Source: a bacterium
Lineage (GTDB): Bacteria; Patescibacteriota; UBA1384; 2-12-FULL-50-11
Direction: 5' to 3'
Assembly (NCBI GenBank): GCA_021463485.1
Contig: JAJTYJ010000002.1
Span: 108,638 to 172,637 of the forward strand
Length of the DNA stretch: 64,000 bases
Shown: positions 8,472 through 55,343 of the stretch, piece after piece
Layout: every line of letters starts with the position of its first letter
Numbering within the stretch: position 1 is the first letter of the stretch
Notes under the pieces: generated by a model
Seen by the model: the letters and a program-made list of their open reading frames with translations, nothing else
Databases searched by the model: none
What the model was told of the DNA's origin: nothing
Translations under genes and position numbers: made by a program

Positions 8472-9566
8472 TTAGAAAATCCCAGTACACACGTATGTAA
8501 TATTATCAGTGTAAGAACCAGCGTTTGCCAAACCGGAGACAGCCGCTTTATGCACAATCGTCAGCACTCGACTTGCCATCGGCCCGGATCCTGAAGCTAT
8601 CGGTGTCGCTGTTCGCAGCAGTCCACCTACCTGGTTACCAGACACATTATAGGGGCTTAAGGCAGAAAGAGCTGCACCTGAACCGCCAGATGTCGATCCT
8701 TGTATCCCGTAACCATCTACCCCGACAGAAAGTGTAGCGTCGGCTGATGCGATTAAGTACGTAGGTGACGAGCTTTTGTACAATCCAGGGTTAGTACCGC
8801 TACCTTCGTCGCGAACACTCACTGCCACCCCGCTCGCAGCGTTGGTGCTGATAGTTATTGTTGTGCTCGTGTCAGACGTAGAAATTGCACCAGTCGTCAG
8901 TGATGCAAAGGTTGTGGTTAGTCCAGTGAACGCGCAGGTAATTGACGGATCAACCGTAGCGTTAACTGTCACATCATTGTCAGCTACGATCTCGACAGCA
9001 ATCGAGCCAGAGTCGGCCATCGTACCGCCGATAAGAATCTTGGCGTCAGTAGCGTTTTGGGCAGCGGTTTGGTTGACGATCGTATTAGCTGCACCGCCAG
9101 CGTTGGTACCTGCTTCTAGTTGGATGCATCGTCCTGCCGCAACTGTGTCGGTGCCAGATGTAAATGTTACAACCTGTCCGGTAATGTCAAATCCCCAAGT
9201 AGTGCCTGAGGCTGTTAATGCGATAGTTTTATCGGAAAAACTCGCACATGACCCAGCAGCACTAACAGCGAAGTCCCAGTTAGAGGTGCTTTCTGCTGCA
9301 AGAGCAAATCCCGTAGGAAAGGTAATAGTAAAAGTCTGACCGGCTGTTATCCCAGTTGGTGTAATAAACTCGATTGTATGATCAGCATTCTGACTCTCTT
9401 TTAAGGTTGAGAGGGTGTCTTTGGCGCTGGTAACTTGTGCAGCGTATACGTACGATCTAACCGGAAAAAACGCAAGCAACAACGCCGCGATTAATAGGTA
9501 AGAAAACCTTCGATAATTCCCCTCGTTTCGGTTCATCTGAAATAAGTTTCTTTTTCCCTTGGGCAT
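8472..9566 (-). CDS. Secreted surface protein, paralog A of a 3-member family (conserved N-terminal and C-terminal domains, C-terminus …ITYVCTGIF)
   Basis: Signal peptide. It shares the N-terminal block (DTLSTLKES…H) and a roughly 180-aa C-terminal domain (…VDGYGIQGSTSGGSG…TIVHKAAVSGLA…YVCTGIF) with 9579-10688 and 10730-11818. Confidence 0.55.
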   Translation of the reverse strand: MPKGKRNLFQMNRNEGNYRRFSYLLIAALLLAFFPVRSYVYAAQVTSAKDTLSTLKESQNADHTIEFITPTGITAGQTFTITFPTGFALAAESTSNWDFAVSAAGSCASFSDKTIALTASGTTWGFDITGQVVTFTSGTDTVAAGRCIQLEAGTNAGGAANTIVNQTAAQNATDAKILIGGTMADSGSIAVEIVADNDVTVNATVDPSITCAFTGLTTTFASLTTGAISTSDTSTTITISTNAASGVAVSVRDEGSGTNPGLYKSSSPTYLIASADATLSVGVDGYGIQGSTSGGSGAALSALSPYNVSGNQVGGLLRTATPIASGSGPMASRVLTIVHKAAVSGLANAGSYTDNITYVCTGIF

Positions 9567-9578
9567 TTGTCAAGTTTA

Positions 9579-10688
9579 CTAAAAGATACCAGTACAAACG
9601 TACGTTAATGTATCTGTGTACGCGCCAGCGGCTGCCAAGCCAGAAACGGCTGCTTTATGAACAATTGTGACAACTCTACTGGCTACGGCACCAGTTGCGG
9701 AAGCTAAAGTTATTGGAGTTAATTCAAGGCCGCCAACATCATTACTTGTTTGATTATACCGAGCGGCAATAGCCACCGTTGCTCCTGAACCACCTGAGGT
9801 TGAGCCTTGAATCCCGAACCCATCTACGTCGTTTGTAAGTGTAGCAGTATCAGAGAATGTCGGACTCCCATCCGCTGAGCCAATCAAATACGTTGGTGAA
9901 CTACTCTTATATAATCCTGGATTACTGCCGTTACCAGCGTCACGCACAGATATGTTAAAGCCGTTCGCGGCATTAGTACTAACCGTTATAGTTGTATTTG
10001 TATCCGACGTTGCGACCGGTCCGGTCAGCGAAGCAAAAGTAGTTGTTAAACCGGTGAACGCGCAGGTAATTCTTGGATCAACCGTAGCGTTAACAGTTAC
10101 GTCGTTATCGGCAACAATCTCAACAGCGACGCTACCAGTGTCTGTATAGCCGCCACCTCCAGTTAGGGTAATAACACCGTCGGTACCGTTTTGAGCGGCC
10201 GTTTGGTTGGTAATTTGATCGTTGCCGGTTCCGCCAGTAGTGGCGTGTGTACCGATCTCAATTACTACTACGGATCCAGCTGCAATTGTTGCGTCACCAG
10301 TACAACGAGTAAAGGTGAAGCCGATCGGGTCGACGGTATCAACGGTTGTAATCGCGATTTCAAGTGTTGCACCGGTGCAACCGCCACTTGCTACAAGGTT
10401 TTGTTCCGCGCCGTCGTCGGTAATGTCAAAATCTTCTGGCTCCGTATTGGCAAAGCCTGAGTTACTAAACCCTGCCGGGAAATCTAACGTCAGTGTCTCG
10501 TCAGCCGCCCACCCGTCCGTGATAGTAAAAGTAAATGTATGATTAGCGACGACGCTTTCCTTAATGGTTGAGAGCGTGTCAGAAAATGACGTCACGTCAG
10601 CTGCCTGGGTTCTGGTAACAGGGAAACTGCTAACGAGCAGTATCGCGACAATAATTTTTCTTATGGAATTAAACGAAACCCCTCTCAT
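9579..10688 (-). CDS. Secreted surface protein, paralog B (C-terminus …LTYVCTGIF)
   Basis: Signal peptide MRGVSFNSIRKIIVAILLVSSFPVTRTQA. The N- and C-terminal domains align with paralogs A and C. The middle region is T/G/D-rich and variable. Confidence 0.55.
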   Translation of the reverse strand: MRGVSFNSIRKIIVAILLVSSFPVTRTQAADVTSFSDTLSTIKESVVANHTFTFTITDGWAADETLTLDFPAGFSNSGFANTEPEDFDITDDGAEQNLVASGGCTGATLEIAITTVDTVDPIGFTFTRCTGDATIAAGSVVVIEIGTHATTGGTGNDQITNQTAAQNGTDGVITLTGGGGYTDTGSVAVEIVADNDVTVNATVDPRITCAFTGLTTTFASLTGPVATSDTNTTITVSTNAANGFNISVRDAGNGSNPGLYKSSSPTYLIGSADGSPTFSDTATLTNDVDGFGIQGSTSGGSGATVAIAARYNQTSNDVGGLELTPITLASATGAVASRVVTIVHKAAVSGLAAAGAYTDTLTYVCTGIF

Positions 10689-10729
10689 CTACTTTCTAAC
10701 GTTATAACTAAATTACTCATATGTAAAGG

Positions 10730-11818
10730 CTAAAATATTCCGGTGCAAACGTATGTTACTGTATCGCTGTAGGCGCCTGACGGCGCGAGATTTGAAACAG
10801 CCATTTTATGTGTGACCGTAACGATGCCGTTATTGATCGGACCGGCAGTACTCGCTAACTGTTGGCTTGCTCCAGCGCCAACCTCTAACCCGCCGACGGT
10901 GTTGCCGGTTTGGTTGTAGCGCGTGGCGATAGAGAGAGTGGCGCTACCAGCGTCTCCTTGGGTAGCGGCGCCTTGAATGCCGAAGCCGTCAACGTTATTT
11001 GAGAGCGTAGCGGTGTCGGCAAACGACGAGTTGGCGGAGCCGATCAAATACGTCGGTGCGCTACCTTTATATAGTCCCGGACTAGTCCCGTTGCCGTTGT
11101 CGTAGACGCTAATACTCAGCCCATTTGGCGCGTTCGTACCAGCAGTAACGGTTGTATTAGTTGCAGCCGTAATTATTACGCCGGTAGCGTCGGGGAAAGT
11201 AACTGTTAGCCCGTTGAAGGCGCAGCTGATTCTTGGCAACACGGCAACGCTTACGGTTGCGTCGTTGTCAGCGACGATCTCAAGTGCTAACGTTCCCGAT
11301 CCGCCGAAGGTTCCGCCTAGCGTTACCGTTGGGTCGGTGTCGTTCTGAGCTGCGGTTTGGTTAATGATTTGGTCGTTTCCAGTAGCACTAAAGGTTGCGT
11401 GAGTACCGATTTCGATAACAATAGTTGAGGAGCTAGCGATGCTGGTACTGCCAGTACAGAGGGTAAATGTGAAAGCGCTGTTATTAATGGAGGTGATATC
11501 AATTTCGTTTGCGGAGCACAGCCCGTTTGCGGTTATAGCCTTATCGACGCCGTCGTCGGTAATGTCAAAATCTTCTGGCTCCGTATTGGCAAATCCGGTG
11601 GTATCGAAGCTATTCGGAAAGTCTATAACCAACGTCTCGCCCGCGTCCCAAGAGTCGTTAATCGTAAACGTTAACGTATGATTGGCAGCGGTACTTTCTT
11701 TGATTGTTGATAGCGTATCTGAGAAATTACTAACTGTCGCTGCAAGCGCAAATTGGTTCGTTGGAAATAGGGTAGTAACAACGAGCGAAGCAATACTGAA
11801 CGCTCGCAACCAACGCAT
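10730..11818 (-). CDS. Secreted surface protein, paralog C (C-terminus …VTYVCTGIF)
   Basis: Signal peptide. Its N-terminal block (VSNFSDTLSTIKESTAANHTLTFTINDSWDAGETL…FANTEPEDFDITDDG) is nearly identical to that of paralog B. The start overlaps the stop of the giant gene (TAATG). Confidence 0.55.
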   Translation of the reverse strand: MRWLRAFSIASLVVTTLFPTNQFALAATVSNFSDTLSTIKESTAANHTLTFTINDSWDAGETLVIDFPNSFDTTGFANTEPEDFDITDDGVDKAITANGLCSANEIDITSINNSAFTFTLCTGSTSIASSSTIVIEIGTHATFSATGNDQIINQTAAQNDTDPTVTLGGTFGGSGTLALEIVADNDATVSVAVLPRISCAFNGLTVTFPDATGVIITAATNTTVTAGTNAPNGLSISVYDNGNGTSPGLYKGSAPTYLIGSANSSFADTATLSNNVDGFGIQGAATQGDAGSATLSIATRYNQTGNTVGGLEVGAGASQQLASTAGPINNGIVTVTHKMAVSNLAPSGAYSDTVTYVCTGIF

Positions 11819-14800
11819 TAGAACGTTCCGGTAACGATATATAAGACTTCGGTCTGGTAATTTTTTGCAGCTTGCAAGGCATCAACAGCAACTTTGTGAG
11901 TGATGGTGAACACTTCGTTAGTAACTGGACCGGTCGCGCCAGTGACGGCGTCGGTGTGATCGGCGACGATATCGCCAAATGCTGCAGTAGCAAATGATGC
12001 ATACAGCGTGCCGCTACTGAATTTATTCGAGCCCTGAATTGTCGTGTCGTTACTTGTATAGCCGTAGCCGCAGTTCGAACCGCCCGTGCAGAATCCGCCC
12101 GGCCATGATCCAGGTGAAGCGTACGTACCACCCTGGAACATAGGGATAGTAAATGAACCGTTTGTTAGCAAGCCGGTGGCGTATTGCCTGATGACGTAAC
12201 CGCCGTAGGCGTTGGTACTGGTAGTTAGGTTGAGGGTTTTGCTATCAGTTCGATTATTTCCGTCGTTGAGGTTCGAGAACGTAACAGTGGTCGAACCAAG
12301 CGTTAAGCTGATAGTTGGCAAGACGTCCTGACCGTTGGAACTGTGAACGCTTGAGGTATTACTAGCGTTGTCGATTGCTCGAACGTTCACGTAGTAGCGC
12401 TGGTTTGTGTGTAGACTTAACCCCGCTTGTGTTGTGTCCTCGTTGGTTCCGTTATTTGTCCAAGTAAGTATATCGGTTCCGCCGGCTGTTGTACCGATCG
12501 ATACATCGTAACGCAGCAGTCCTGAGGCACCACAACTGAACGCATCCCAGTTGGCTGTTAATTCCTCGAGCGACCCGTCGTTAAACGCAGCGTCGACGTC
12601 TTCAACTAAGCCGTCGTATATTGTCCCAGCGTACGTGCAGGCAGTTGTATCTACGCCAAAGTCTCGAGCCGACTCAGCGTTACCGCCGTAGCTTACCCAA
12701 GATCCGTATACTCCGCCCTGATCTTTAACTCGTGCTTGCCAGTGGTACTCGCTCACGTCTGTTATTCCGCTAATCGTGACCGTAACGGTAACTGGTGTAC
12801 CGGAGTACGCAACGCCAGTTCCGCAAAGATCCTCGGTGTTACTGAAACCAGTGCCAAGTAAGTCTTTTTCAACGCATAGGTATAAAGTGTCGGAAGAATC
12901 AGTGTCTGAGGCTGTTGCTGTAAATTTAACACTCGTTTCATTGGTCCAACCTCCGGTTGCGATCACGGTATCGTTGGTTTTTTTCTGGGCTAAGTCGCTT
13001 GGCGCGTCCGGATTACTAAAGTTCCAATTTACGTTATTGCCACAATCAAAATTTGTTCCGTCGTTTGCCATGATCGTATTGCCGCTCGAGGCGTTCGATC
13101 GAGAGACGTTAACGTAACTAACCGCAGTTTGAGTGCCCGATACGTTCAAATTCCACGATCCGCTGACGGCGCTGTTGCGGAAGTATAGTCTGGTACCGAC
13201 GGCTTGACCGTTCCAGTTGATATTCGTCAGTGTGTACGTAGAACCGGAATTAAACTCTATGCGAGAGCTGGCAGTAGTGAAAACGGTGTTATTGGTTACT
13301 GTCGCTGAAGCAGCGAAGTCAATACCGGCGACAAATCCGGTTCTTTCGCAATCGGATGCGTTAGTGCCTGAGCTGTTAGTGATTGTAAGATTGTAAAATG
13401 AGCTGGACCCAGTCATTAACCCACTTAATGTTTGAGTACTCGTTCCGTTTAATACAACAGTTCCAGTATTAGCATTCAATACAGCATTATTGGTGTTAAC
13501 CCAGTTTCCGCCGACGTTTAGTGTTCCGGATCCGAGTGTCAGTATTGCTGTTGTTGTCCCAAAAGTTACATTACCAGTAACAGTTACCGTATAGCCGTTG
13601 ATATCTATCTCAGACGCGCGACTGCAACAACCAATTAGGAAGCTTGTGAATGAAGCGTTGCCCTGGAAAATTGTTTTAAAACCAGTGTTTTGCTCCGTTT
13701 GAAGACCAGAATTATATGTGAATGCGGGAATATTTTTATTGTTTGATCCGTATGGCGCATATGCGCCGTTACCAGTTCCCCAAGTTCCGGAAGGATTAAG
13801 GTTTAAGAAATTCGCGTTTGTACCAGAATTGTAGAGTAGTCTTGAGTTTAGATCGAATGTTCCCGTTCCTAGGTTGATTTGGTTTTCAACACCAAATGTT
13901 TGCATCATCCGTGTGGTGTTGCCCGATTGCCCAACTGTTAGGTTGTAAAATCGGTGCTGCCAGACGTTTGTTGATCCGGTAGTTATCGTTTTTGTCCCGG
14001 TACCGTTCATAACTACTGTCGACGTCCCTCGAACGAACGATGCGTCGTCAGCGCCAATAGCTGATGTATCCCAGTTACCAGAGACAGTAATGGTGGCGGC
14101 CCGTGCTTGGAACGTCCAGGTACCTGAAGTTCCTGTGAAGTTGTTATCGACCGTTAGGGAATAGTTTGATCCGTTAACAGTGTCATACACACCATTAGTG
14201 ATCGTAAAGTTGTTATTAACGTCTACGGCGGCAGTTGGGGTTAGAGTTCCGCCAGCGGCATTAAGAACCATATTATAAAGAGATTGTCCGTTGGGGGCAT
14301 AGCTAACGGTACCGGAAGTGTTTGTCCAAGTTAAGGTGGAGGTTCCTTCGGTTACCGTAAAAGTACCCGTGCCGTTAACGAATCTAACATTACCCTTAAT
14401 ATTGATATCCGCGCTTGACAAATTTAAAGAATGACTTCCACCGTTTGAAACTGGGAATAAAGCATTACTTGTTCCATTCTCAAGTGTAACGGTACTCGAA
14501 CCGAAGTTACTGGCGATAGCAGTCGTGTTAGAACTGTGACCGGTTGAAAATGATTTGGCTGTCAAGTTAAAGTTTTGTGTGTTGAAATTCGATCCAGCAC
14601 CGCCACTAGCCGCCCAAACAAGAACCGTCCCAGTTGTTGTTACGTTTCCCGAAAGGTTGAATGTAACCGTACTGGCCGTATCGGCACGTAGTAGGATATT
14701 CCAGGTGCCGTAGTTACCGCTGGCGATGGAGATGGTGCTGGCACTTTGCTTGCGCAAATGAAAGGTAGCATTTGAACCCGACAGAGTTGCTGAACCATCG

Positions 14801-24676: not shown

Positions 24677-25056
24677 TACAGACGTACTTTGCTGCTTTAA
24701 CAAGCGGGACCTTTGTTTTACCTACCACGGGAACAAAGGAGCGTAATCGCGAACATTTCGCGGTTACAAGAACAAACCAGCCGATGGACTGGCAAATTTC
24801 CATCCCTTTCTCGGTAAAACGAGAGAGTGCCAAACAATTCCAAAAAAACAAAACAGTATGTCAGCTGAAATGATTTATCATTTCGCTCGTAAGGTTCAGT
24901 AGGCTTTTATGTGAGTTAAATCTCAAAGAGTTTGACGAAGACGGTTTCGGCCGTCGGACACAAATTTCTTACCAAAAGGTAAGAGTTTGATCTGAGCACA
25001 ATTCTTCTGAAGAGTGCGAAGACAAACTCTCATAAAAATCCCTACAGGAATTTTTA

Positions 25057-26505
<1,449 letters not shown>

Positions 26506-26637: not shown

Positions 26638-26836
26638 TGGGCGATACTGGACTCGAACCAGTGACCTCGTCATTATACGCTGAGCGAACCGTTCAAATTT
26701 TGTCTGTGCGCGTACCTGGACTCGAACCAGGGACCTCGTCATTATCAGTGACGCGCTCTAACCAGCTGAGCTATACGCGCAAGGACAAAATTTGAATGTA
26801 TCAGTGACGCGCTCTAACCAGCTGAGCTAATCGCCC
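26638..26836 (-). tRNA. Split/intron-containing tRNA-Ile(GAU)-like gene: 5' exon 26798-26836, 125-nt insertion 26673-26797 at position 37/38, 3' exon 26638-26672
   Basis: 5' part is GGGCGAT-T-AGCTCAGCTGGTTAGAGC-G-CGTCA-CTGATA. 3' part is A-TGACG-AGGTC-ACTGG-TTCGAGT-CCAGT-ATCGCCC-A. The acceptor pair (GGGCGAT/ATCGCCC) and the T-stem pair (ACTGG/CCAGT) are perfectly complementary to each other and differ from those of the nested gene. The insertion holds the complete tRNA-Ile above, bracketed by the inverted repeat TTCAAATTTTGTC / GACAAAATTTGAA. Confidence 0.5.
26707..26780 (-). tRNA. tRNA-Ile (anticodon GAU), complete 74 nt, nested inside the interruption of a second tRNA-Ile gene
   Basis: Minus-strand cloverleaf: acceptor GCGCGTA/TACGCGC, D-arm TAGCTCAGCTGGTTAGAGC, anticodon stem-loop CGTCA-CTGATAA-TGACG, T-arm CCTGG-TTCGAGT-CCAGG. 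No encoded CCA. Confidence 0.85.
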
Positions 26837-27001: not shown

Positions 27002-27583
27002 ATGGTTGCCGAAGACGCCAAGAAAAAATTTTCACATAAACAGGCGCTACAGTTGGTCGGATTTATTCTGTTGTTTGGTCTTTTTGTTGGTGGAATCTCG
27101 GCAATTATGAATAAGTTTCTTGCGCCACACATCGAACCGTTAACCGATATTATTTCGTACCATCCGTTCCGAGCGTTGGCCGGATACTTTCTATTTGTCA
27201 TGATCGCCTCGGTGTTTGTACCGATTCCAACACTGCCGGTAGATTTGTTGTTTTTTGAATACGTTGACCCGACAAGCGTTATTGTCGCTCGAGTTCTCGG
27301 TGGGGTGGCTGGAGGGAGTATTAGCTATTATTTGGCCTATAACTACGGCCGACCGCTATTAAAGCGATGGCTATCGAGAAAAAATTACGATTTTGTCGAG
27401 GGTGTCTCGAACGCCGTGAGCTGGAAACAATTTTTCATTATCACTATGATTCCGATCATCAACGCAGAACTAATGGCGTTCGTTGGAGGTGTTGGGAAAA
27501 TTGGCTATCGAAAAACTATCGGAACGTTGCTACTTGCGATCGCGTACCGAGTCCTGTTCGTTTACGCTGTCATCCAACGTTAG
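27002..27583 (+). CDS. DedA/TVP38 (VTT-domain) family membrane protein
   Basis: 193 aa, multi-TM, with a conserved PIPTLPVDLL…G VTT-like core. Confidence 0.55.
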   Translation: MVAEDAKKKFSHKQALQLVGFILLFGLFVGGISAIMNKFLAPHIEPLTDIISYHPFRALAGYFLFVMIASVFVPIPTLPVDLLFFEYVDPTSVIVARVLGGVAGGSISYYLAYNYGRPLLKRWLSRKNYDFVEGVSNAVSWKQFFIITMIPIINAELMAFVGGVGKIGYRKTIGTLLLAIAYRVLFVYAVIQR

Positions 27584-28995
27584 CGGCGTTTAATAATAAT
27601 GGCGTTAGGCAGGCTCCGGCCCGGGCCAATTTTGTAACTACTATTAAACATCATCGCACTCGATCCGCCGCCGTCGACGTTGAGCGCGTAATCGACGTCG
27701 AGCGCGTCCATTACTGCGGACAAATCCGGAACTGTGGCGCTGGTTGCAATTACTAAGTAGAGCGTTTGGCCCTTTAGCCCGATCGCGCCTCGATTCGATT
27801 TTGTTGTGCGTTGCTTGTCATCGAGCGAGCCTTCGTCGAGAATATTATTGCCGTTACTAATTAATGCTGGTTTGCAGTTGATACCGGCGACTCCAGCAAA
27901 CCCCGAACCGGCGTAGCTGCTCCAGGATGAAAAATATCTAGCGGTACCGGCGGAGTTAAAAGCGATAAACGGGTCGTTTTCGCCTAAGCCGTTGTTAGCG
28001 TTAATCATTTTACTGAGACGAGTATTGAGCACTTTCCAGAAGAACGAGCCGACTTGGCCGGCGCACGCTGAGTAATCGGCGGGGCAAAAATAGGTACCGT
28101 TCATGCCGGCAAAGCCGCCGTTACCACTGACGTAACTACTTAAGCTTTTGGTCGGGCAGTTATCGGTGCAATCGTTGTCGTTAGCGGTATCGGTGCTAAC
28201 AGCAAACTGACCGCTAGCTAAGTTAAAGGTTGAGAGATGGATACTGAAGCTACCGCGACTGGTTGCGATCGATATTTTCTCATACTTACTGTCGCCGTTA
28301 GTGGTGGAGGTCGTGGTGGTCGTACTGGTTTTTGCTTGCGTCTTTGTAAGTGCCAAATTAAGCGTTGTTGTTTGCTGAGCTGTAATACTAACGCCGGTTT
28401 TTTTAACCGAATTGTAACCGCTCTTTGATGCTGTGAGTGTGTATGTCCCGGCCGTAATCGTAAAAGTATAAGCGCCGTCGGCGGCGCTTGTTGTGGTAGT
28501 CGTTGTTGTGCCGTCTGTAAGTGTTAGCGACACTCCTGAGAGAAGTTGTTCGCCTTCTTTCACTACACCAACAAGTATTCCGGATTGGCGCTGTAACTCA
28601 GCGACTCGATTTATCTCCGTTTGAGTGGCAATTAGTGTTTCAACCACGGCGACTTGATCGCGAATAGTGTTAAAATTTTCAATCGTTTTAGTCGGATCAG
28701 AAATCCGTGATTTAATTTCAACAATTACTTTCTCAAGCGCCGCGGTGTCAGCTCCGATTGCCTTAGCAGCGTCAACTTTTTCCTGAAGTGTCTTGATTGC
28801 GGCGACTAATTGTAATTGTGAGTTATGCTCCAGCTCAACAGCCAACTGCTGATCGAGGCGATCGCTTTGCTGTTTCTGCAGCACGCTCTGAGCTTGCAGC
28901 GAAGCGATAATTATCAGAAACGTTACGATCAGTGACAAGCCGCGCCACTTATGGCTATGAAGCTCGTTCGAAATTGGTTGGAATAACCGATGCAT
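27580..28995 (-). CDS. Membrane-anchored extracellular protein: coiled-coil, CarboxypepD_reg-like beta domain, C-terminal phosphodiester-glycosidase (DUF2233/NAGPA-like) domain
   Basis: N-terminal TM. The segment at ~40-130 is heptad-rich. The run TTTTTTTSAADGAYTFTITAGTYTLTASKSGYNSVKKTGV resembles a CarboxypepD_reg-like fold. Near the C-terminus, ALNVDGGGSSAMMF matches the DGGGSS hallmark of the phosphodiester glycosidase family. Confidence 0.45.
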   Translation of the reverse strand: MHRLFQPISNELHSHKWRGLSLIVTFLIIIASLQAQSVLQKQQSDRLDQQLAVELEHNSQLQLVAAIKTLQEKVDAAKAIGADTAALEKVIVEIKSRISDPTKTIENFNTIRDQVAVVETLIATQTEINRVAELQRQSGILVGVVKEGEQLLSGVSLTLTDGTTTTTTTSAADGAYTFTITAGTYTLTASKSGYNSVKKTGVSITAQQTTTLNLALTKTQAKTSTTTTTSTTNGDSKYEKISIATSRGSFSIHLSTFNLASGQFAVSTDTANDNDCTDNCPTKSLSSYVSGNGGFAGMNGTYFCPADYSACAGQVGSFFWKVLNTRLSKMINANNGLGENDPFIAFNSAGTARYFSSWSSYAGSGFAGVAGINCKPALISNGNNILDEGSLDDKQRTTKSNRGAIGLKGQTLYLVIATSATVPDLSAVMDALDVDYALNVDGGGSSAMMFNSSYKIGPGRSLPNAIIIKRR

Positions 28996-32273: not shown

Positions 32274-32346
32274 GGGCCGTTAGCTCATTTGGTAGAGCGC
32301 CGCATTTGCACTGCGGAGGTGTGGGGTTCGAATCCCCAACGGTCCA
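32274..32346 (+). tRNA. tRNA-Ala (anticodon UGC)
   Basis: Cloverleaf: acceptor GGGCCGT/ACGGTCC with the G3:U70 Ala identity pair, anticodon loop TTTGCAC, T-arm TGGGG-TTCGAAT-CCCCA. 73 nt, no encoded CCA. Confidence 0.9.
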
Positions 32347-38889: not shown

Positions 38890-41838
<2,949 letters not shown>

Positions 41839-42272: not shown

Positions 42273-42391
42273 ATCTTGGTGTCTCGAGCGACAGGGGTAC
42301 ACCTCTTCCCATTTCGAACAGAGAAGTTAAGCCTGCCAGCGCCGATGATACTCAGGGCTAACAGCCCTCGGGAAAGTAGGCCGACGCCAAG
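42273..42391 (+). rRNA. rrf: 5S ribosomal RNA
   Basis: The terminal helix pairs tcttggtgtc with gacgccaaga. Internal blocks cccatttcgaacagagaagttaagcc and cgccgatgatact match the 5S consensus. Length is about 119 nt. Confidence 0.85.
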
Positions 42392-42404
42392 ATAAAGAGT
42401 TTAA

Positions 42405-44176: not shown

Positions 44177-45271
44177 ATGCAAGCATGGATTGAAGTAGAT
44201 TTGGGCGCGATCAGCCGTAACGTCGATCGCGTTAAACAAAAGATCGGCAAAACCGTTGGAGTGATTGCCGTGGTAAAAAGCAACGCATACGGACATGGTT
44301 TAGAAAAAGTAGTCGAGACGCTCGATAAGAAAGATGTTGAGATGTTTGCGGTGATATCCATTGAAGAAGCCGATCGCGTCCGTCGAGTTTCGAAAAAGCC
44401 GATCTTAATTTTGGGCTATCTCGATACGAAAGAATTAATCGACGCGATCGAAGAAGGTTACCGAGTTAGTCTATACGACGTTGAACAGATTGCGCTCTAC
44501 CAGCGCGCAGCGGAACGTCTCGGTAAAACAATCTCAGTTCATTTAAAAGTGGAGACTGGTTTAAATCGGCTGGGTTTTAGTGCTGAACAAACCGTCGATT
44601 TTCTTCTTGGCCAGCGGCGGTATCCGAATATCCGGGTTGAGGCGCTTTTTTCGCATTTGGCGGACGCATCGAGCGCCGAGAAGAACGAGCAGCAACTGCG
44701 GGTTATTCAAGATATCTTGATCGATATCGAAGGCAAGGTCCCGCTTCTGCCGATTCATTTTGATAGTAGTTACGCGCTGACAAACTTCCCGCAAGGCTAT
44801 TTAGATGCCGTTCGGATTGGCTTAGCGCTGTACGGTATCGACGAAGTTCTGCCTGGTTTAGAAAGTTCGTTTACGTGTAAGTCGGTGGTGATGCAAATTA
44901 AAGATGTGGCAGCTGGTGAAGGTGTAAGTTACGGCCATCTATATAAGACGAAACGCGACACAAAAATTGCGGTGGTAGCGATCGGGTACGCAGACGGCTT
45001 GTCTCAAGTGATGCGCGATAAACTGACGGTTTTAATTCAGGGCAGCGAGGTACCGGTGATCGGTCAGATCTGCATGAATATGATAATCGCTGATGTTACT
45101 GACATTACGGCAAAACGCGGCGACGAAGTCGTAATTATCGGTTCACAAAAAAACAGCGCCGGTGAAACTAAAACAATTAAAATTACCGATATCGCTAAGC
45201 GCTGTGCGTTACGACATCACGAGATTATTACTCGGTTGGGTACGGCTCTACCGAAGCGCTATTATGGGTAA
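44177..45271 (+). CDS. alr: Alanine racemase
   Basis: PLP-binding motif VVKSNAYGHG near the N-terminus. Length is 364 aa. Confidence 0.9.
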   Translation: MQAWIEVDLGAISRNVDRVKQKIGKTVGVIAVVKSNAYGHGLEKVVETLDKKDVEMFAVISIEEADRVRRVSKKPILILGYLDTKELIDAIEEGYRVSLYDVEQIALYQRAAERLGKTISVHLKVETGLNRLGFSAEQTVDFLLGQRRYPNIRVEALFSHLADASSAEKNEQQLRVIQDILIDIEGKVPLLPIHFDSSYALTNFPQGYLDAVRIGLALYGIDEVLPGLESSFTCKSVVMQIKDVAAGEGVSYGHLYKTKRDTKIAVVAIGYADGLSQVMRDKLTVLIQGSEVPVIGQICMNMIIADVTDITAKRGDEVVIIGSQKNSAGETKTIKITDIAKRCALRHHEIITRLGTALPKRYYG

Positions 45272-49799: not shown

Positions 49800-50129
49800 A
49801 TGCAACATAACCGAATTCAGCGCAGACAAGTCTACAAATCAGGAGGAGTTTTTAGTATTGGCCCAACAGCGGCTCGGTATTTTATTTTAACGCTCCTGGC
49901 AGTTTTTTCGTTATTTTACTTAATCCAATCCGCTCAGGGATCAGACGGCTTAATTGAGCTTCGCAAGCTTGAAGACACGAAGGACTCGCTAACAAAAGAA
50001 ATGACGACGTTGAAGGTTAACGATAGTCGTATTCGTTCGTTGCAGAATCTTCAGCAGTCTGCATCATCGCAAGGGTTGGTGCCGATTTCTGGCGCTACTG
50101 AATCAATTACAGTGACACCGACACCGTGA
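49800..50129 (+). CDS. ftsL: Cell division protein FtsL-like (single TM plus coiled-coil)
   Basis: GGAGGGAA lies upstream of the ATG (MQHNRIQ…). One TM helix and a heptad region. The position is between rsmH and ftsI. Confidence 0.5.
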   Translation: MQHNRIQRRQVYKSGGVFSIGPTAARYFILTLLAVFSLFYLIQSAQGSDGLIELRKLEDTKDSLTKEMTTLKVNDSRIRSLQNLQQSASSQGLVPISGATESITVTPTP

Positions 50130-51829
50130 CGCAGATGGGCGATCGGGTTCTGTATATCCGAACAACGCTTCTACTGTTATTAGCGGCGTTTGCAGGTGGA
50201 TATTTTTTATTCAAATTATTCAATTATCAAGTTCTCGACCACGAGCAGTACGTTGAAGCGGCGGAGCTTCAGTCGACCAGTACCGCAACCGAACAAGCTC
50301 AGCGAGGCGTTATTTTAGCTAAGGATAGAGACGGGAAACTCTATACTCTTGCTGCCAGTGAAGAGCGCTACCAATTATTTATTGCACCTCGCCAAGTTAA
50401 GAATAAACAAAAACTAGCCGAGTTAATTGCAGAAGAAAAAATCGGGCTAAAAAAGGAAGAGATTTTTGAAAAAATTAATAACGACAAAGTGTATATTCCC
50501 GCGCTCGCACGCAATCTCACCCCGGCTCAAGCGGACGCATTACTTAAAAAGAACTACGTCGGCGTGTACGTCCGCCCAGAATTCGTTCGAGTGTACCCGG
50601 AAGGATCGGCGATCGCGCCGCAACTTTTGGGATTCGTTGGTTCAGATGGGCAAGGTAAATACGGCGTTGAAGCAACAAACGATCAGGTGTTGCGTGGCGT
50701 CTCCGGATCGGAAAAAGCTAAAAAGGATTCGCTCGGACGACTGATTGATATTTTAGGCGCAAAGCGCGCTGAGCCCGGTGCCGACATTGTGTTAACGATC
50801 GATTACAATTTACAATTTACAGTTGAAGCCAAACTAAAAGAGGCGACCGAACGATTTCAAGCCGAAGGCGGCTCGATCGTTATTCTCGATCCTAAAACCG
50901 GCGCAATTCTGGCAATGGCCGGCTACCCGACGTTTGATCCAAACATCTTCAACGAGGTTACCGGCGAGGCTCAGCGTAATTTCTTACCAGCCGGCGCTAG
51001 CTTGCCGTACGAACCGGGTAGCGTAATGAAACCAATTACTATGGCGATGGCGATCGAGATGGGTCTAGTACAACCAGACACTACGGAAATCTTTGGCGGA
51101 TCGGTAAAAGTCGGTGGGTTTGAGATTCGTAATGCGGAGGATAAGGTATACGGGAGAGAGACGATGACCCAAGTACTGGAAAACTCCGATAACGTTGCGA
51201 TGGTCTGGCTCTCGCAAAAAATCGGCAAAGAAAAACAGCGTGAATTCTTGGAAAAATTTGGTTACGGCGCCAAAACCGGTGTCGAATTAGTGGGCGAACA
51301 GCCAGGAGTGCTTCGTGATGCAAAAGAATGGAACGACACGCTGAGCGCAACTGCTGCGTACGGCCAGGGCGTCTCGGTAACGCCGTTGCAATTGGCTACG
51401 GCGTACGCAGTTATCGCCAATAACGGAGTGACAGTCTCGCCGCATTTAGTAGCGCAAACGATTCGTGGCACAGCTGTAACGCCGTACAGTGCGAAAGCGG
51501 GCACTCGGGTAATTAGCGAGGAAACGGCTAAAAAAATTAGGGAGATGTTAGTCTCGGTAGTTGAGCTTGGGCACGGCAAGAGAGCGAAAGTCGAGGGTAT
51601 TAGAGTTGGAGGTAAGACCGGTACGGCCCAAGTGGCCGACCCACAAGGCGGTTACGCTGAAGATAGACATATCGGTAACTTCGCTGGACTATTCCCGGCG
51701 GACGACCCAAAGTTCGTTATGGTCGTACGTCTCGACAACCCAAAGACTGTAAAGTTCGCCGAATCTTCAGCCGCTCCGATCTTCGGTGAGCTAGCTAACT
51801 GGATGACGAACTACTACAAACTGCGATAA
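50126..51829 (+). CDS. ftsI: Penicillin-binding protein 2x/FtsI-type transpeptidase
   Basis: N-terminal TM, SxxK (GSVMKP), SxN (NSDN) and KTG (KTGTA) motifs in order. Confidence 0.85.
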   Translation: MTQMGDRVLYIRTTLLLLLAAFAGGYFLFKLFNYQVLDHEQYVEAAELQSTSTATEQAQRGVILAKDRDGKLYTLAASEERYQLFIAPRQVKNKQKLAELIAEEKIGLKKEEIFEKINNDKVYIPALARNLTPAQADALLKKNYVGVYVRPEFVRVYPEGSAIAPQLLGFVGSDGQGKYGVEATNDQVLRGVSGSEKAKKDSLGRLIDILGAKRAEPGADIVLTIDYNLQFTVEAKLKEATERFQAEGGSIVILDPKTGAILAMAGYPTFDPNIFNEVTGEAQRNFLPAGASLPYEPGSVMKPITMAMAIEMGLVQPDTTEIFGGSVKVGGFEIRNAEDKVYGRETMTQVLENSDNVAMVWLSQKIGKEKQREFLEKFGYGAKTGVELVGEQPGVLRDAKEWNDTLSATAAYGQGVSVTPLQLATAYAVIANNGVTVSPHLVAQTIRGTAVTPYSAKAGTRVISEETAKKIREMLVSVVELGHGKRAKVEGIRVGGKTGTAQVADPQGGYAEDRHIGNFAGLFPADDPKFVMVVRLDNPKTVKFAESSAAPIFGELANWMTNYYKLR

Positions 51830-51839
51830 CTGATACACT

Positions 51840-52910
51840 ATGCCCATGAAAGCTTGGAGAGACGAATTTCTGTGGCGCTGCGCTCTGCGTCGAGTGAAGA
51901 ATGCGGATACGACCGTTATTGCTATCGGCGGTGGGATCGCTAAGACCTCGACCAAGTATGCTGTCGGAGCGGTGCTGTCGGATTTTTTCAAAGGTAATGT
52001 ATTTGTTGGCTTTGGAAACTTGAATACGTACCTCGGCGTGCCACTTTCGATTCTGGAATTCAAGATAGATTTTCACCACCAATCAATTAGTTGGCAGTGG
52101 CCGATTATTCTTATACAAGCTTGGGTACGCTCATTTGCGCCCCTGCCAAAGTACGTCGTGTTGGAGTACGGTACCGATCAGCCAGGAGATATAAGAAAAC
52201 TTACCAGCAAGCTGCCGCCACAGATTGCGGTTCTAACAACCGTTGCGCCAGCGCATGTGGTTAATTACGGCTCACTCGATGCGGTAGCTGAAGATGAAGG
52301 GGCGCTTGTCGCAGCCGTACCCAAAGACGGAGTGGTATTTTTGAACAAGCGAGATCCGTATTACTCCCAACATAAAAATCGTATCGTTGCTCAAACAGTC
52401 ATCGAAGCTGACTTACCAAATGAGGAGCTTTCTGTTGGTTTCGCTCGATTGGTTGGAGAATATCTCGATATTCCAGGCGAGAAAATCGAGGACTCACTCA
52501 AGCATATGGAATTGCCGCCACAGCGATTTTCTGAGCGACGGATAGGCGATTGGCTAGTATTAGACGATACGTATAACGCGAACCCTGCTTCAATGGAAGC
52601 GGCGCTTAGTCGATTAAAAAAGATGCCGGGTCGTAAAGTGGCGATACTCGGGACGATGCGCGAGCTCGGCGAGGCCGAGAAAATTCTTCACAAGCATATT
52701 GGGGATTTGGCTCAAACTGTTGCAGACGTTGTGATCGGTGTCGGTGAGCACACCGATCAATACCAACCAGTCGTGCGATTTGAAACCAGTGATCAGGCCG
52801 CTAAAGAGATCTTTTCTTATCTGAAAAAAGGAGATAGTATCTTGGTGAAGGGGTCACGATCAATTCATATGGAAAAGATAATCTCAGCTTTGGAACATGT
52901 CTCTGCTTGA
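51840..52910 (+). CDS. murF: UDP-MurNAc-tripeptide--D-Ala-D-Ala ligase MurF, short form lacking the N-terminal domain
   Basis: C-terminal signature LDDTYNANPASMEAAL. The P-loop region reads IAIGGGIAKTSTK, with Ala in place of the canonical Gly before Lys. 356 aa, versus about 450 for canonical MurF. Confidence 0.65.
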   Translation: MPMKAWRDEFLWRCALRRVKNADTTVIAIGGGIAKTSTKYAVGAVLSDFFKGNVFVGFGNLNTYLGVPLSILEFKIDFHHQSISWQWPIILIQAWVRSFAPLPKYVVLEYGTDQPGDIRKLTSKLPPQIAVLTTVAPAHVVNYGSLDAVAEDEGALVAAVPKDGVVFLNKRDPYYSQHKNRIVAQTVIEADLPNEELSVGFARLVGEYLDIPGEKIEDSLKHMELPPQRFSERRIGDWLVLDDTYNANPASMEAALSRLKKMPGRKVAILGTMRELGEAEKILHKHIGDLAQTVADVVIGVGEHTDQYQPVVRFETSDQAAKEIFSYLKKGDSILVKGSRSIHMEKIISALEHVSA

Positions 52911-53919
52911 AGCCTCGCATTTTGCGTTAGCGAAAACTTTCTGGCTGGCAAGTCTATCGTTTTTGGTCGCGTTTCTTTGGACGCCGTTATTTACTGATTT
53001 CTTATACAAAAACCGTTTAGGTAAAAAAATTAGACAAACAGGTTTTGACGAGAAGAAAGCACCAATTTTCTATGCTCTGCATAAGCACAAGGAAAACACT
53101 CCAACGATGGGAGGGCTGTTAATTTGGATAACGACCGCAGTAGTAACATTATTAATGAACTTATCGCGCGCTCAAACTTGGTTACCGCTCTTTGCTCTAG
53201 TCGCCACCGGTATTGTTGGGGCAATTGACGATATTATGAATATTAACGGCATCGGGCCGAATCGCGGCGGGCTGAGGTTTCGTTGGAAGTTGATTATTTA
53301 CGCGTTAATCGCGATGGTTGGTGCTTGGTGGTTTTATTACAAGCTTGGTTGGAACGTGCTGTCTATCCCCGGAATCGGACCGGTCGAGATCGGAGCCTGG
53401 TATATTCCGTTATTTATTCTGGTAATTGTCTTTACAACCTTTAGCGCCAACGAAGCAGACGGTCTGGACGGGCTGCTTGCTGGAATGATGGCGAGCTCGT
53501 TTGCGGCGTTCGGGATGATCGCGCTTATACAAGGTAAAACAGAATTAGCAGCCTTTTGTGGAACGATTCTCGGATCGTTACTGGCGTTTTTGTGGTTCAA
53601 TATTTATCCGGCCCGGTTCTTTATGGGGGATACCGGTGCGATGGCGCTCGGCATGACGCTTGGAATTTTAGCATTTCTTACTGATACAGTTTTGATCTTG
53701 CCGATTATCGCGCTGATGTTGTACGTCGAAGGTTTCTCAGCCGTTATCCAAATCGCTTCCAAGAAGCTGCGAAACGGTAAAAAAGTATTTTTGTCTGCCC
53801 CGATCCATCACCACTATCAGGCAATCGGTTGGGAAGAGCCGAAAATCACAATGCGTTTTTGGGTTGTCTCGGCGGTAGCGGCGATGCTCGGACTGTTTGT
53901 CTATCTTGTGAGCCGCTAG
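52897..53919 (+). CDS. mraY: Phospho-N-acetylmuramoyl-pentapeptide transferase
   Basis: 10-TM profile, DD/DG motifs (ANEADGLDGL) and HHH (APIHHHYQ). Confidence 0.9.
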   Translation: MSLLEASHFALAKTFWLASLSFLVAFLWTPLFTDFLYKNRLGKKIRQTGFDEKKAPIFYALHKHKENTPTMGGLLIWITTAVVTLLMNLSRAQTWLPLFALVATGIVGAIDDIMNINGIGPNRGGLRFRWKLIIYALIAMVGAWWFYYKLGWNVLSIPGIGPVEIGAWYIPLFILVIVFTTFSANEADGLDGLLAGMMASSFAAFGMIALIQGKTELAAFCGTILGSLLAFLWFNIYPARFFMGDTGAMALGMTLGILAFLTDTVLILPIIALMLYVEGFSAVIQIASKKLRNGKKVFLSAPIHHHYQAIGWEEPKITMRFWVVSAVAAMLGLFVYLVSR

Positions 53920-53951
53920 AAAATCTCCAGGTGTTACGGCATACTTAAGGT

Positions 53952-55343
53952 ATGTCGCGGATTGATTGGGAGAAATTTCGCTCGAAAAAAATTGGCTTAC
54001 TCGGTGCCGGTAAAGAGAACCTGAGTCTTATTCCATTTTTTGTGAAACACGGTGTCGATGTGGTGATTTGCGAGCAAAATAGTGAGCCGTCGAATATCGA
54101 GCGACTTGAGCGGATAGACGGGGTCGGATTGCAGATCGGCGAGGATGCATTAAGCGAGCTATCTCAATTTGATTACGTCTTTAGGACGCCAGGTATGCCA
54201 GTAGTTGAGGTCGAGCGCGCGATCAGTTCGTCGCAACCATCTCCAATTAGATCGTCAGCCGTCGATCTGTTTCTAGAATATTACGGAAAGCAGGTAATCG
54301 GCGTCACCGGAACCAAAGGCAAAGGTACGACCTCCACGATGATTTATTCGATACTCAAAGCCGGTTCAAAAAAGGTACAACTGGCGGGTAATATCGGCAA
54401 TTCAATTTTTGAGAGCATCGATCAGATCGACGACGAGACGTGGGTAGTTATGGAATTATCCAGCTTTCAGCTCGAAGATATCTCACACAGTCCGCACATC
54501 GCTGTTTTACTGCCGGTGACGTCTGAACATTTGCAGCCGCTCTCGGCCCGTAGTCCTAACTACCACCGATCGCTAGATGATTATATCGAAGCTAAAAGAC
54601 AGCTAGTGGCATTTCAGGCTACTGACGATGTTGTTGTGTACGCCGCTGATAGTCCGACTTCAACAAAGATGGCGGAGAGCTCAAAAGCCACACAATACGG
54701 CGTTGGAAGGTCGGCCGAATCTGCAGTTCTTACGGGTGATGAACTTGTGTTTCAGGGCCGGAAAATCTCATTAGCTAAAGCCGGAATTAAAGGGGATCAC
54801 TTACTTCTCGATGCGGCACTTGCAGCAGTGACAGCCGTACAGTGCGGTGTTAAGTCGGAAGATGTTATTCCCGGCCTAAAAACCTTCAAGCCGCTGCCGC
54901 ACCGAATGGAAAATATCGGAGTCTTTAACGGTATAACAGTTATCGACGACAGCTACGCAACCGCACCCGACGCGACAATTGCGGCGCTCTCCGCTTTCGA
55001 TCAGCCGACAATCCTACTAGCAGGGGGATCGTCTAAGGGTATGGATTTTACCGAACTCGCTCAAGCGATTATCCGTCGGAAAGTAAAGGCCGTGCTGTTA
55101 ATTGGTCAAGAAGCGCCGCGGATTGAGAAATCGTTGCAAGAAGTAGACTATCCGGGAATCGTCGAGAAATTGGACACCTTGGAGCAAGCAGTTAATCGAG
55201 CTATTGAGATTGCTGCCTCAGGCGACACTATTTTACTTTCGCCGGCCTGTGCGAGTAAGGATATGTTCATTGATGCCGCCGACCGTGGGACGCAATTCAC
55301 CCTATTAACTAGAAGTCTCCTTAAAGATGTCGCAAAGCGGTAA
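53952..55343 (+). CDS. murD: UDP-N-acetylmuramoylalanine--D-glutamate ligase
   Basis: Mur ligase P-loop GVTGTKGKGTTSTMI, in the MurD position of the dcw cluster. Confidence 0.85.
   Translation: MSRIDWEKFRSKKIGLLGAGKENLSLIPFFVKHGVDVVICEQNSEPSNIERLERIDGVGLQIGEDALSELSQFDYVFRTPGMPVVEVERAISSSQPSPIRSSAVDLFLEYYGKQVIGVTGTKGKGTTSTMIYSILKAGSKKVQLAGNIGNSIFESIDQIDDETWVVMELSSFQLEDISHSPHIAVLLPVTSEHLQPLSARSPNYHRSLDDYIEAKRQLVAFQATDDVVVYAADSPTSTKMAESSKATQYGVGRSAESAVLTGDELVFQGRKISLAKAGIKGDHLLLDAALAAVTAVQCGVKSEDVIPGLKTFKPLPHRMENIGVFNGITVIDDSYATAPDATIAALSAFDQPTILLAGGSSKGMDFTELAQAIIRRKVKAVLLIGQEAPRIEKSLQEVDYPGIVEKLDTLEQAVNRAIEIAASGDTILLSPACASKDMFIDAADRGTQFTLLTRSLLKDVAKR

Follow-up and report, generated by a model that had tools for sequence, protein, structure and literature searches.

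What are the secreted proteins, one of them a giant of 2,201 amino acids (aa), that a patescibacterial genome encodes side by side and that all end in the same C-terminal domain? The stretch of DNA in question (hereafter the window) comprises 64,000 nucleotides of contig JAJTYJ010000002.1 (NCBI GenBank assembly GCA_021463485.1, positions 108,638 to 172,637), and the four genes belong to a block on its minus strand at 5.5–18.4 kb. An earlier note, made from the sequence of the window, had taken the domain to be novel, perhaps specific to this lineage and possibly an analogue of the WxL domain with tyrosine in place of tryptophan. Here we propose that the block is probably a Pam-type pilus operon of a Berkelbacteria-like bacterium of the candidate phyla radiation (CPR; Patescibacteria). 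The observations from which we argue are domain homology, protein architectures, the presence or absence of a linker strand, operon synteny and the homology of a neighbouring chaperone candidate to the WxLIP proteins of Firmicutes.

Four proteins with one C-terminal domain

Sequence identities and hidden Markov model (HMM) searches both bear out a common C-terminal domain (CTD) of ~160–170 aa in four proteins, namely the giant and three paralogs of 364, 369 and 362 aa (p364, p369 and p362). Over the last 200 aa, the paralogs are 55–72% identical to one another and the giant is 27–33% identical to the paralogs; the tails read TYVCTGIF in all three paralogs and LYIVTGTF in the giant; and a CTD-only HMM, built from 54 family members with the giant left out, matches residues ~2034–2201 of the giant (E = 9e-19 to 7e-20). 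Exactly four copies of the domain are found in the window with this HMM. All four proteins also appear to be secreted, as had been suggested, each starting with an N-terminal hydrophobic segment or signal-peptide-like sequence. The motifs initially assigned to the domain generalize less well: SPTYLI(G/A)SA and VDG(F/Y)G are present in the three paralogs but not in the giant, which keeps just IQG there, and TYLI is absent as a conserved feature from the wider family. Tryptophan, said to be missing from the domain, is indeed missing from the paralog domains, but the giant's domain has one. The positions that are conserved family-wide are TNAxxG(Y/F)xx(T/S)V, a GYG-like glycine, KAA(I/V)S, AG.Y.DT.TY and a C-terminal aromatic residue.

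Four neighbouring genes could have come to share a tail by recent duplication or recombination, with no wider meaning, and the adjacency of the three paralogs and their 47–60% identity over the full length would suit such an origin. The paralogs have an N-terminal domain (NTD) in common too and are thus whole-gene paralogs, not mere carriers of one domain. The profile of the four C-termini that the earlier note had asked for was searched against 1.84 billion representative sequences and found 493 clusters (at 50% identity) at E ≤ 1e-3, 264 of them at E ≤ 1e-10, across CPR lineages; in addition, p369 has 209 homologues, and the giant-plus-pilins arrangement is conserved in the related loci of other genomes. 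Local duplication without wider meaning is refuted by these results, and we give it practically no chance of being correct. The same search removes the supposed restriction to a single lineage, the named relatives being Berkelbacteria, Woykebacteria, Saccharibacteria and Minisyncoccia, and the domain is not novel either: it is already catalogued as NCBIfam NF058581 ('CPR_Pam_pilin_C') and treated in a 2026 cryo-electron microscopy (cryo-EM) preprint.

Among the 150 best representatives, the domain-bearing proteins span ~200 aa to nearly 3,000 aa (34 proteins of <260 aa, 51 of 260–420 aa, 49 of 420–1,000 aa and 16 of ≥1,000 aa), and in all 150 the domain ends 0–3 residues from the protein C-terminus. 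This extreme position argues against sortase-type covalent pili or wall-anchored adhesins, for which a transpeptidase would have to link the Ig-like domains or anchor them. All four window proteins end in TG(I/T)F-COOH, with no LPXTG motif, C-terminal transmembrane (TM) segment or charged tail, and no sortase-family match was obtained among the operon proteins scanned against Pfam; we consider a sortase-type system very improbable.

Membership in the Pam pilin family

Pam pili are known from Ca. Mycosynbacter amalyticus, a CPR bacterium for which cryo-EM structures of two filaments were presented (Troman et al., bioRxiv 10.64898/2026.03.03.709456). According to that preprint, Pam pilins have a signal peptide, a nine-strand NTD, a linker donor strand, a truncated Ig-like CTD and paired cysteines, with the linker strand of one subunit filling the CTD of its neighbour (donor-strand exchange); further products of the pam operon are two chaperones of the PapD/FimC type, each with a membrane helix at its C-terminus; PamT is a single-domain tip pilin without linker and PamR a membrane-anchored terminator (10.64898/2026.03.03.709456). 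The system is reported to be confined to the CPR, with emphasis on Saccharimonadia and Microgenomatia, and its loci to lie beside the ATP synthase operon (10.64898/2026.03.03.709456).

Sequence comparison identifies the domain shared by the window proteins as the CTD of Pam pilins, which is predicted to accept a strand. The NF058581 profile (length 148; curated cut-off 55 bits) matches residues 227–364 of p364 at positions 13–148 of 148 (E = 3.6e-4, 20.6 bits) and the giant's C-terminus (last 300 residues searched) at positions 3–148 (E = 2e-5, 24.7 bits), both under the cut-off; p369 and p362 have no direct match to it. Their relatives match far more strongly. Of 54 aligned full-length p369 homologues, 39 match NF058581 (best E = 8e-37) and 9 match the PamT model, and in the comparison made for the giant's C-terminus, 28 of 47 homologues also match NF058581. 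Four of the ten p369 homologues tested pass the 55-bit cut-off (P0110, P0112, P0114 and P0116, with 69.5, 72.6, 126.6 and 60.7 bits, respectively), and these four have 33–36% identity to p369 over 74–99% of length (95–99% for three). Pam membership of the window proteins is transitive, because they fall under the cut-off while full-length homologues pass it, but on these sequence grounds we regard it as solid. Searches of PDB sequences with p369 and with the pilin family profile returned nothing relevant. In keeping with a restriction to the CPR, wherever one of the 209 pilin homologues or 163 chaperone homologues carries a source name, it is that of a patescibacterial lineage (most matches are nameless), the named p369 homologues coming from the four groups listed above.

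Putative donor strands and acceptor domains

The architecture of the paralogs follows that of Pam pilins. Four parts can be recognized in p362, namely a signal peptide, an N-terminal beta-sandwich, a linker (putative donor) strand and a C-terminal acceptor domain, with strong matches to the NTD and CTD HMMs (E = 3e-60 and 5e-49, respectively; CTD of p364, E = 1e-55). In an AlphaFold2 (AF2) model of p369 (predicted local distance difference test (pLDDT) 91.5), ~10 NTD strands at residues 33–188 and an all-beta CTD at 207–367 are separated by a linker (189–206) that is without structure in the monomer. Foldseek searches with the pilin model gave matches to the chaperone-usher pilins CfaE, CfaB, CS17, CsuA/B and PapG. 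Cysteines in the first strand (ITC) and the last strand (YVC) of the CTD co-vary (both present in 93 representatives, neither in 45 and one in 10), which suggests that the pair joins these strands and fits the paired cysteines of the preprint.

Among short segments, the one best conserved in the two-domain pilins is the 21-residue linker, with the family consensus TLAVAIVADDQVTVTATVDPS (TLALEIVADNDATVSVAVLPR at residues 176–196 of p362; linker HMM E = 1.4e-7). When tested on the pilins of the window and of four related loci, the linker HMM finds every two-domain pilin (E = 1e-11 to 3e-7), and it has no match in the giants or CTD-only proteins of the same loci. From the PamA/PamB cryo-EM structures we infer that this linker would act as the donor strand.

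In the giant, a hydrophobic segment (residues 28–46) is followed by a long, extracellular T/S/G/N-rich region, the protein being without internal repeats in self-BLAST at E < 1e-3, and nothing in the protein is significant in Pfam. The AF2 model of its last 300 residues (pLDDT 92.6; predicted template modelling score (pTM) 0.84) has fibronectin type III (FN3)-like strands at fragment residues ~20–125 and the CTD at ~137–298, with ~10 residues between the two domains; Foldseek matches of this model in the PDB are mainly to fibronectin type III domains, so that this search, dominated by FN3, was uninformative on the acceptor domain. Neither the pilin NTD HMM nor the linker HMM matches the giant, and no linker strand precedes its CTD. 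Such a protein could accept a strand but not donate one, which would place it at the distal tip of a fibre, and by analogy with FimH and PapG we propose that the giant is a tip adhesin.

A chaperone candidate homologous to WxLIP

The gene that follows the pilins encodes a 326-aa protein with a signal peptide, two Ig-like domains, a C-terminal TM helix (residues 272–290) and an RRRKR stop-transfer sequence, and we propose it as a candidate equivalent of PamC/PamD. Sequence comparisons identify it as a clear full-length homologue of Firmicute WxLIP (DUF916–DUF3324–TM). Its own match to Pfam WxLIP_PGBD (DUF916, PF06030) is weak (E = 8.7e-5), 38 of 50 homologues match too, several homologues are called 'DUF916 domain-containing protein' by NCBI, and alignment of the CPR chaperone family with Firmicute WxLIP by hhalign extends over both Ig-like domains (Prob 99.0, E = 3.6e-18, 231 columns). 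The Firmicute set used here consisted of 68 loci collected by the WxLIP motif NQIDKxxxYFDLK, with 66 WxLIP proteins and 59 small WxL candidates; as a control, all 10 of the small WxL candidates scanned against Pfam were WxL members (PF13731, 1e-35 to 1e-70). The best PDB sequence match of the 326-aa protein is EfmWxLIP1 (9i25, 9i1y). Entries 9i25 (chains A and C) and 9i1y carry the names 'EfmWxLIP1' and 'WxL domain surface protein', and 9i25 is a solved WxL–WxLIP complex; a paper describing them was not found in our literature search. At the locus of P0114, one of the homologues that pass the NF058581 cut-off, the next gene after the pilin encodes 344 aa with the same faint fn3_5 Pfam match. 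The preprint makes no mention of WxL or DUF916, and no paper joining 'WxL' and 'Patescibacteria' was found in the literature searched.

Conserved gene order in related loci

The gene order of the block recurs elsewhere. A complete Berkelbacteria genome (CP066697.1; locus L069) has a giant of 3,280 aa, three pilins, a chaperone and a Big_1 protein in this order, and L072 has a giant of 4,642 aa, one pilin, a chaperone and a Big_1 protein, with the same flanks as in the window (phosphoglycerate kinase (PGK), triosephosphate isomerase (TIM) and a class II tRNA synthetase). In each of the two loci, the giant has the domain at its end (CTD HMM E = 4e-17 and 3e-18, respectively). The description of the window's organism as Berkelbacteria-like is based on this synteny with L069 and L072 together with the named homologues. 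In the giant's place, L070 (Woykebacteria) and L071 have a PamT-like CTD-only protein of 228 aa or 257 aa. The chaperone gene comes after the pilins in all four related loci, and the position of the anchor candidate is taken in L069, L070 and L072 by a protein that has a Big_1 or Big_7 domain and a TM segment, and in L071 by a 261-aa TM protein.

Two side observations concern these loci. The Pam-like operon of L070 (12784–18695) adjoins an F-type ATP synthase operon, as the pam loci of the preprint do. In L071, two chaperone-family genes (8840–9865 and 12136–13230), one divergent (E = 3.6e-22) and one typical (E = 1e-94), flank the pilins and recall the PamC/PamD pair.

Proposed assembly

We propose the following assembly. 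All subunits would be exported by Sec, and the CTD would form an Ig-like beta-sandwich that is incomplete until a beta-strand of another protein occupies its groove. The membrane-anchored WxLIP-like chaperone would cap the open groove of each new subunit, and the ~20-residue linker (EIVADNDVTVNATVDP) would displace the chaperone strand and enter the CTD of the preceding subunit, such donor-strand exchange building a non-covalent fibre. The 2,201-aa protein would take the distal tip as a FimH- or PapG-like subunit that joins a receptor-binding part of very large size to a pilin domain; the three paralogs would form the shaft, possibly as successive segments; and the Big_1/TM protein is a possible terminator and anchor of the fibre. 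The pilus would most likely serve to reach and bind host cells, this role and the anchoring being projected from the PamA/PamB structures. The earlier suggestion of a 'complex-docking module' comes near to this likely mechanism, donor-strand docking, and erred in calling it lineage-specific.

Several points weigh against a Pam-type pilus. Not one of the four window proteins reaches the NF058581 cut-off, and the window pilins are likened to PamA/PamB (PDB 25PZ, 25QA) through family models and the published description; strand exchange, subunit order and tip position are extrapolated from the structures of those relatives. The chaperone candidate is likened to PamC/PamD by its domain make-up, no NCBIfam model matches the chaperone family, and the window has one chaperone gene where M. 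amalyticus has two. The 496-aa anchor candidate has a Big_1 fold, unlike the RbmA-like FnIII pair of PamR. Its mature N-terminus AQTNIDVNANVLP (AQNTTVNATVV in L072) looks similar to the latter half of the linker of the pilins, yet anchor N-termini searched with the linker HMM give E = 6–7, which is not significant; for this reason, a role as fibre terminator or anchor analogous to PamR stays a hint.

The WxL question

In a WxL cluster, two proteins, one small and one large, have a WxL domain at the C-terminus and are accompanied by one WxLIP that has a C-terminal membrane helix (PMC10599100). According to AF2 predictions, the WxL sandwich is completed by a strand of WxLIP (Hassan & Williamson, PMC10599100), which would be the same logic as complementation by the Pam chaperone. 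The window has the make-up of such a cluster, with a WxLIP homologue adjacent to four domain-bearing proteins, one of them of 2,201 aa. The idea of a WxL analogue survives as regards this neighbour and the cluster layout, but the domain itself is not a member of Pfam WxL (0 of the 54 family members match PF13731 at E ≤ 1). Trp-x-Leu motifs were sought and there are none, the paralog domains being without tryptophan; in the representatives checked, the C-terminal aromatic position (Tyr of TYV) is occupied by Y, F, V, I, L or T, in no case by Trp, and the first-motif position in the window proteins holds F, V, L or Y.

Direct comparison of the two domains gave a suggestive similarity. With hhalign, the Pam CTD aligns to WxL at E = 0.056 (probability about 1%), which is not significant alone, the stretch TvSTNA--xxGYxiTV lying opposite VQVTDxRGTnaGWxLxV (first WxL motif). 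When extended, the alignment remains co-linear over 136 columns, pairing DPsITf..FGtL with GPLsIDy..FG and AGsYtdtlTyV with a..YtttlTWtL (second WxL motif); column shuffles reached its score in 1 of 150 cases and its summed posterior in 0 of 150. With a broader Pam profile, the C-terminal motif was the best local match (E = 0.15). HMM-versus-sequence searches gave a per-sequence P of about 3e-4 to 5e-3; the four-sequence profile scored E = 0.39, on an unrelated segment; and the global hhalign alignment collapsed to 3 columns. Because of this collapse, the E = 0.39 comparison and P values that are per-sequence alone, we make no claim of homology between the CTD and WxL. The replacement of tryptophan by tyrosine proposed earlier suggestively fits the second WxL motif (Tyr of TLTYV opposite Trp of TLTWxL), but not the first. 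TYLI was rejected as the equivalent of the first motif, being conserved in the three paralogs only, and the alignment places G(F/Y)xI(S/T)V there.

These comparisons bear on a rival to the pilus, WxL-type display without polymerisation, in which the CTD would be a non-covalent anchoring module that binds peptidoglycan and/or stays permanently in the grip of a strand of the membrane-anchored WxLIP-like protein, and so would tether all four proteins as a surface complex, in line with a proposal made for Firmicute WxL clusters. The weak co-linear motif similarity between domain and WxL speaks for it, although none of the 54 family members has a Pfam WxL match and profile–profile E values range from 0.056 to 0.39. 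The neighbouring full-length WxLIP homologue, the cluster-like layout of large and small proteins with a common C-terminal domain beside a WxLIP-like gene (PMC10599100), the AF2-predicted completion of the WxL sandwich by a WxLIP strand (PMC10599100) and the peptidoglycan synthesis genes encoded by the genome would all suit display, but the homologous Pam pilins form donor-strand-exchanged filaments by cryo-EM. Finally, the conserved ~20-residue linker occurs exactly in the two-domain proteins and is missing in the giant and the CTD-only proteins, a pattern that is explained by polymerisation and not by simple anchoring and therefore counts against display, which we judge unlikely relative to the Pam-type pilus.

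In the Firmicute loci (L001–L068), small WxL proteins (for example, L003:6477-7274 and L022:5050-5850) have a signal peptide, a conserved short strand of the form Y-x-SNG-x-I-x-F-x-PN (in a loose version, the pattern fits 22 of 43), a spacer of ~37 residues with 30% Pro and then the WxL domain. This strand looks like an N-terminal-extension donor strand.

A broader hypothesis, to which we give somewhat less than even credence, is that Pam pili and Firmicute WxL clusters are two branches of one ancient monoderm system of chaperone-assisted donor-strand complementation. The Pam acceptor domain would then have its Trp-bearing equivalent in the WxL domain, and WxLIP, instead of binding peptidoglycan and hosts, would serve as a pilus chaperone anchored in the membrane; the products of WxL loci would be strand-exchanged fibres or adhesins tethered by chaperones, with the conserved N-terminal Y-x-SNG-x-I-x-F strand and Pro-rich spacer of small WxL proteins as donor strand; and in the Berkelbacteria-like clade the tip pilin would have been fused to giant adhesins.

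Operon layout and genomic setting

From the giant to the 496-aa gene, neighbouring genes abut, overlap by 1 base or are separated by a gap of ≤41 bases (Table 1). The operon is flanked by a trigger factor gene, which lies upstream in divergent orientation, and by glycolysis genes (PGK, TIM), and no ATP synthase genes adjoin it. In scans for promoters and terminators, the number of sites did not exceed that in shuffled sequence. The 496-aa protein, a secreted membrane protein, has a Big_1/invasin Ig domain, a Pro/Gly-rich spacer (PPPPPPDDEDPPPGGGG), three hydrophobic segments in its interior and a pair of CarboxypepD_reg domains. The corresponding proteins of L069 and L072 are shorter, with 326 and 319 aa, and have just Big_1/Invasin_D3 Pfam matches. 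The 123-aa open reading frame (ORF) has no family match and no counterpart at that position in L072, and its part in the pilus system is uncertain.

Table 1 Features of the Pam-like operon and of its products, in positions of the window.
Feature	Position	Strand	Basis or remark
Giant secreted protein, 2201 aa	11818-18423	minus	ORF call
FN3-like domain just upstream of the giant's CTD	12346-12663	minus	AF2 and Foldseek
CTD (Pam pilin type) at residues 2034-2201 of the giant, with the end YQTEVLYIVTGTF	11821-12324	minus	CTD HMM, E = 7e-20
Pilin paralog p362, 362 aa	10730-11818	minus	ORF call
Linker equivalent of p362	11231-11293	minus	
Acceptor-domain equivalent of p362	10733-11242	minus	
Pilin paralog p369, 369 aa	9579-10688	minus	ORF call
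Linker (proposed donor strand) of p369, SVAVEIVADNDVTVNATVDPR	10071-10133	minus	Linker HMM
Acceptor domain (predicted) of p369, residues 203-369	9582-10082	minus	Family alignment
Pilin paralog p364, 364 aa	8472-9566	minus	ORF call
Linker equivalent of p364	8943-9005	minus	
Acceptor-domain equivalent of p364	8475-8954	minus	
Chaperone candidate, 326 aa	7491-8471	minus	WxLIP homology
Membrane protein / anchor candidate, 496 aa	6001-7491	minus	Pfam and hydrophobic segments
Small ORF, 123 aa	5527-5898	minus	One TM segment; operon's downstream end

Elsewhere in the window, the rRNA genes are unlinked: the 16S gene (25052–26503) is separated by 12.4 kb from the 23S gene (38898–41835), which is followed by the 5S gene (42275–42392), and the gap contains protein-coding ORFs and tRNA genes at 26707–26780 (minus strand) and 32274–32346 (plus strand). 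A dcw-like peptidoglycan synthesis block at 50126–59886 (plus strand) encodes a penicillin-binding protein transpeptidase and several Mur ligases and, together with an alanine racemase gene at 44177–45271, leads to the conclusion that the organism makes a cell wall. A further protein possibly located at the surface or in the envelope is encoded at 27580–28995 (minus strand); it is the second one with CarboxypepD_reg, here in fusion with a NAGPA phosphodiester glycosidase domain.

Implications

A block of 'hypothetical proteins' can now be given a name, that of a Pam-type pilus operon, and the Pam system would be extended to a Berkelbacteria-like lineage whose proteins are missed by current NCBIfam cut-offs. 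New beyond the preprint are the proposed giant tip adhesins with an acceptor domain and the homology of a Pam-operon chaperone to WxLIP. The presence of one acceptor domain on proteins of ~200 to nearly 3,000 aa suggests that episymbionts carry huge and variable adhesins at the tip of a fibre that is cheap and needs no machinery; if such mounting is general, these large proteins are candidate host-range determinants. For WxL clusters, the mechanism of which has been obscure since they were first described in lactobacilli and enterococci, homology between the Pam chaperone and WxLIP offers a concrete and testable structural hypothesis.

Comparison with known systems

Chaperone-usher pili (Pap, Fim, CFA/I and Csu) resemble Pam pili in an incomplete Ig-like fold that is completed by a donor strand, in a two-domain Ig-like chaperone and in a C-terminal strand ending in an aromatic residue, and their adhesins, each with a receptor-binding part and a pilin domain unable to donate, resemble the proposed tip protein of the window. 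In contrast, there is no detectable sequence homology between the systems, no usher-like protein was found by Pfam scan among the window operon genes, there is no outer membrane and the chaperone is membrane-anchored; the proposed donor strand is an internal linker rather than an N-terminal extension, and the pilins have an additional NTD.

WxL clusters (PF13731 with WxLIP PF06030/DUF3324/TM; for example, Csc of Lactiplantibacillus plantarum; PMC9772566, PMC10599100) share with the window a WxLIP homologue with a C-terminal TM helix and a combination of one large multidomain protein and smaller ones with a common domain of ~170–200 aa at the extreme C-terminus. In both WxL clusters and Pam, a partner is predicted to donate the strand that completes the domain's sandwich, and the motifs P-x-I...FG, G-aromatic-x-aliphatic-x-V and Y-x-x-x-L-T-(W/Y)-x-(L/V) are co-linear. 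The window domain differs in having no Pfam WxL match, no Trp at either motif and no significant profile–profile similarity to WxL. An internal linker strand and an additional NTD set Pam pilins apart from small WxL proteins, which consist essentially of a WxL domain behind a Pro-rich spacer; and WxL domains are reported to bind peptidoglycan, which is not known for Pam domains.

The Pam pilus of M. amalyticus (PamA/PamB/PamE/PamT, PamC/PamD and PamR; NF058581, NF058579) differs from the window in its host, which here is Berkelbacteria-like, and in proteins from which those of the window have diverged to under the NCBIfam cut-offs. The proposed window tip is a protein of 2,201 aa (3,280 and 4,642 aa in relatives), not a small single-domain PamT; there is a single chaperone gene instead of a pair; the anchor candidate is a multi-TM Big_1/CarboxypepD_reg protein, not an RbmA-like PamR; and the window copy has no adjoining ATP synthase genes, which the related locus L070 shares with the pam loci. 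Against these differences stand a homologous CTD; two-domain pilins of ~38 kDa with a signal peptide, beta-sandwich NTD, linker strand and truncated Ig-like CTD; paired cysteines; a two-Ig-domain chaperone (a candidate here) with a C-terminal TM helix; a linker-less tip subunit (a proposed one here); and occurrence in the CPR only.

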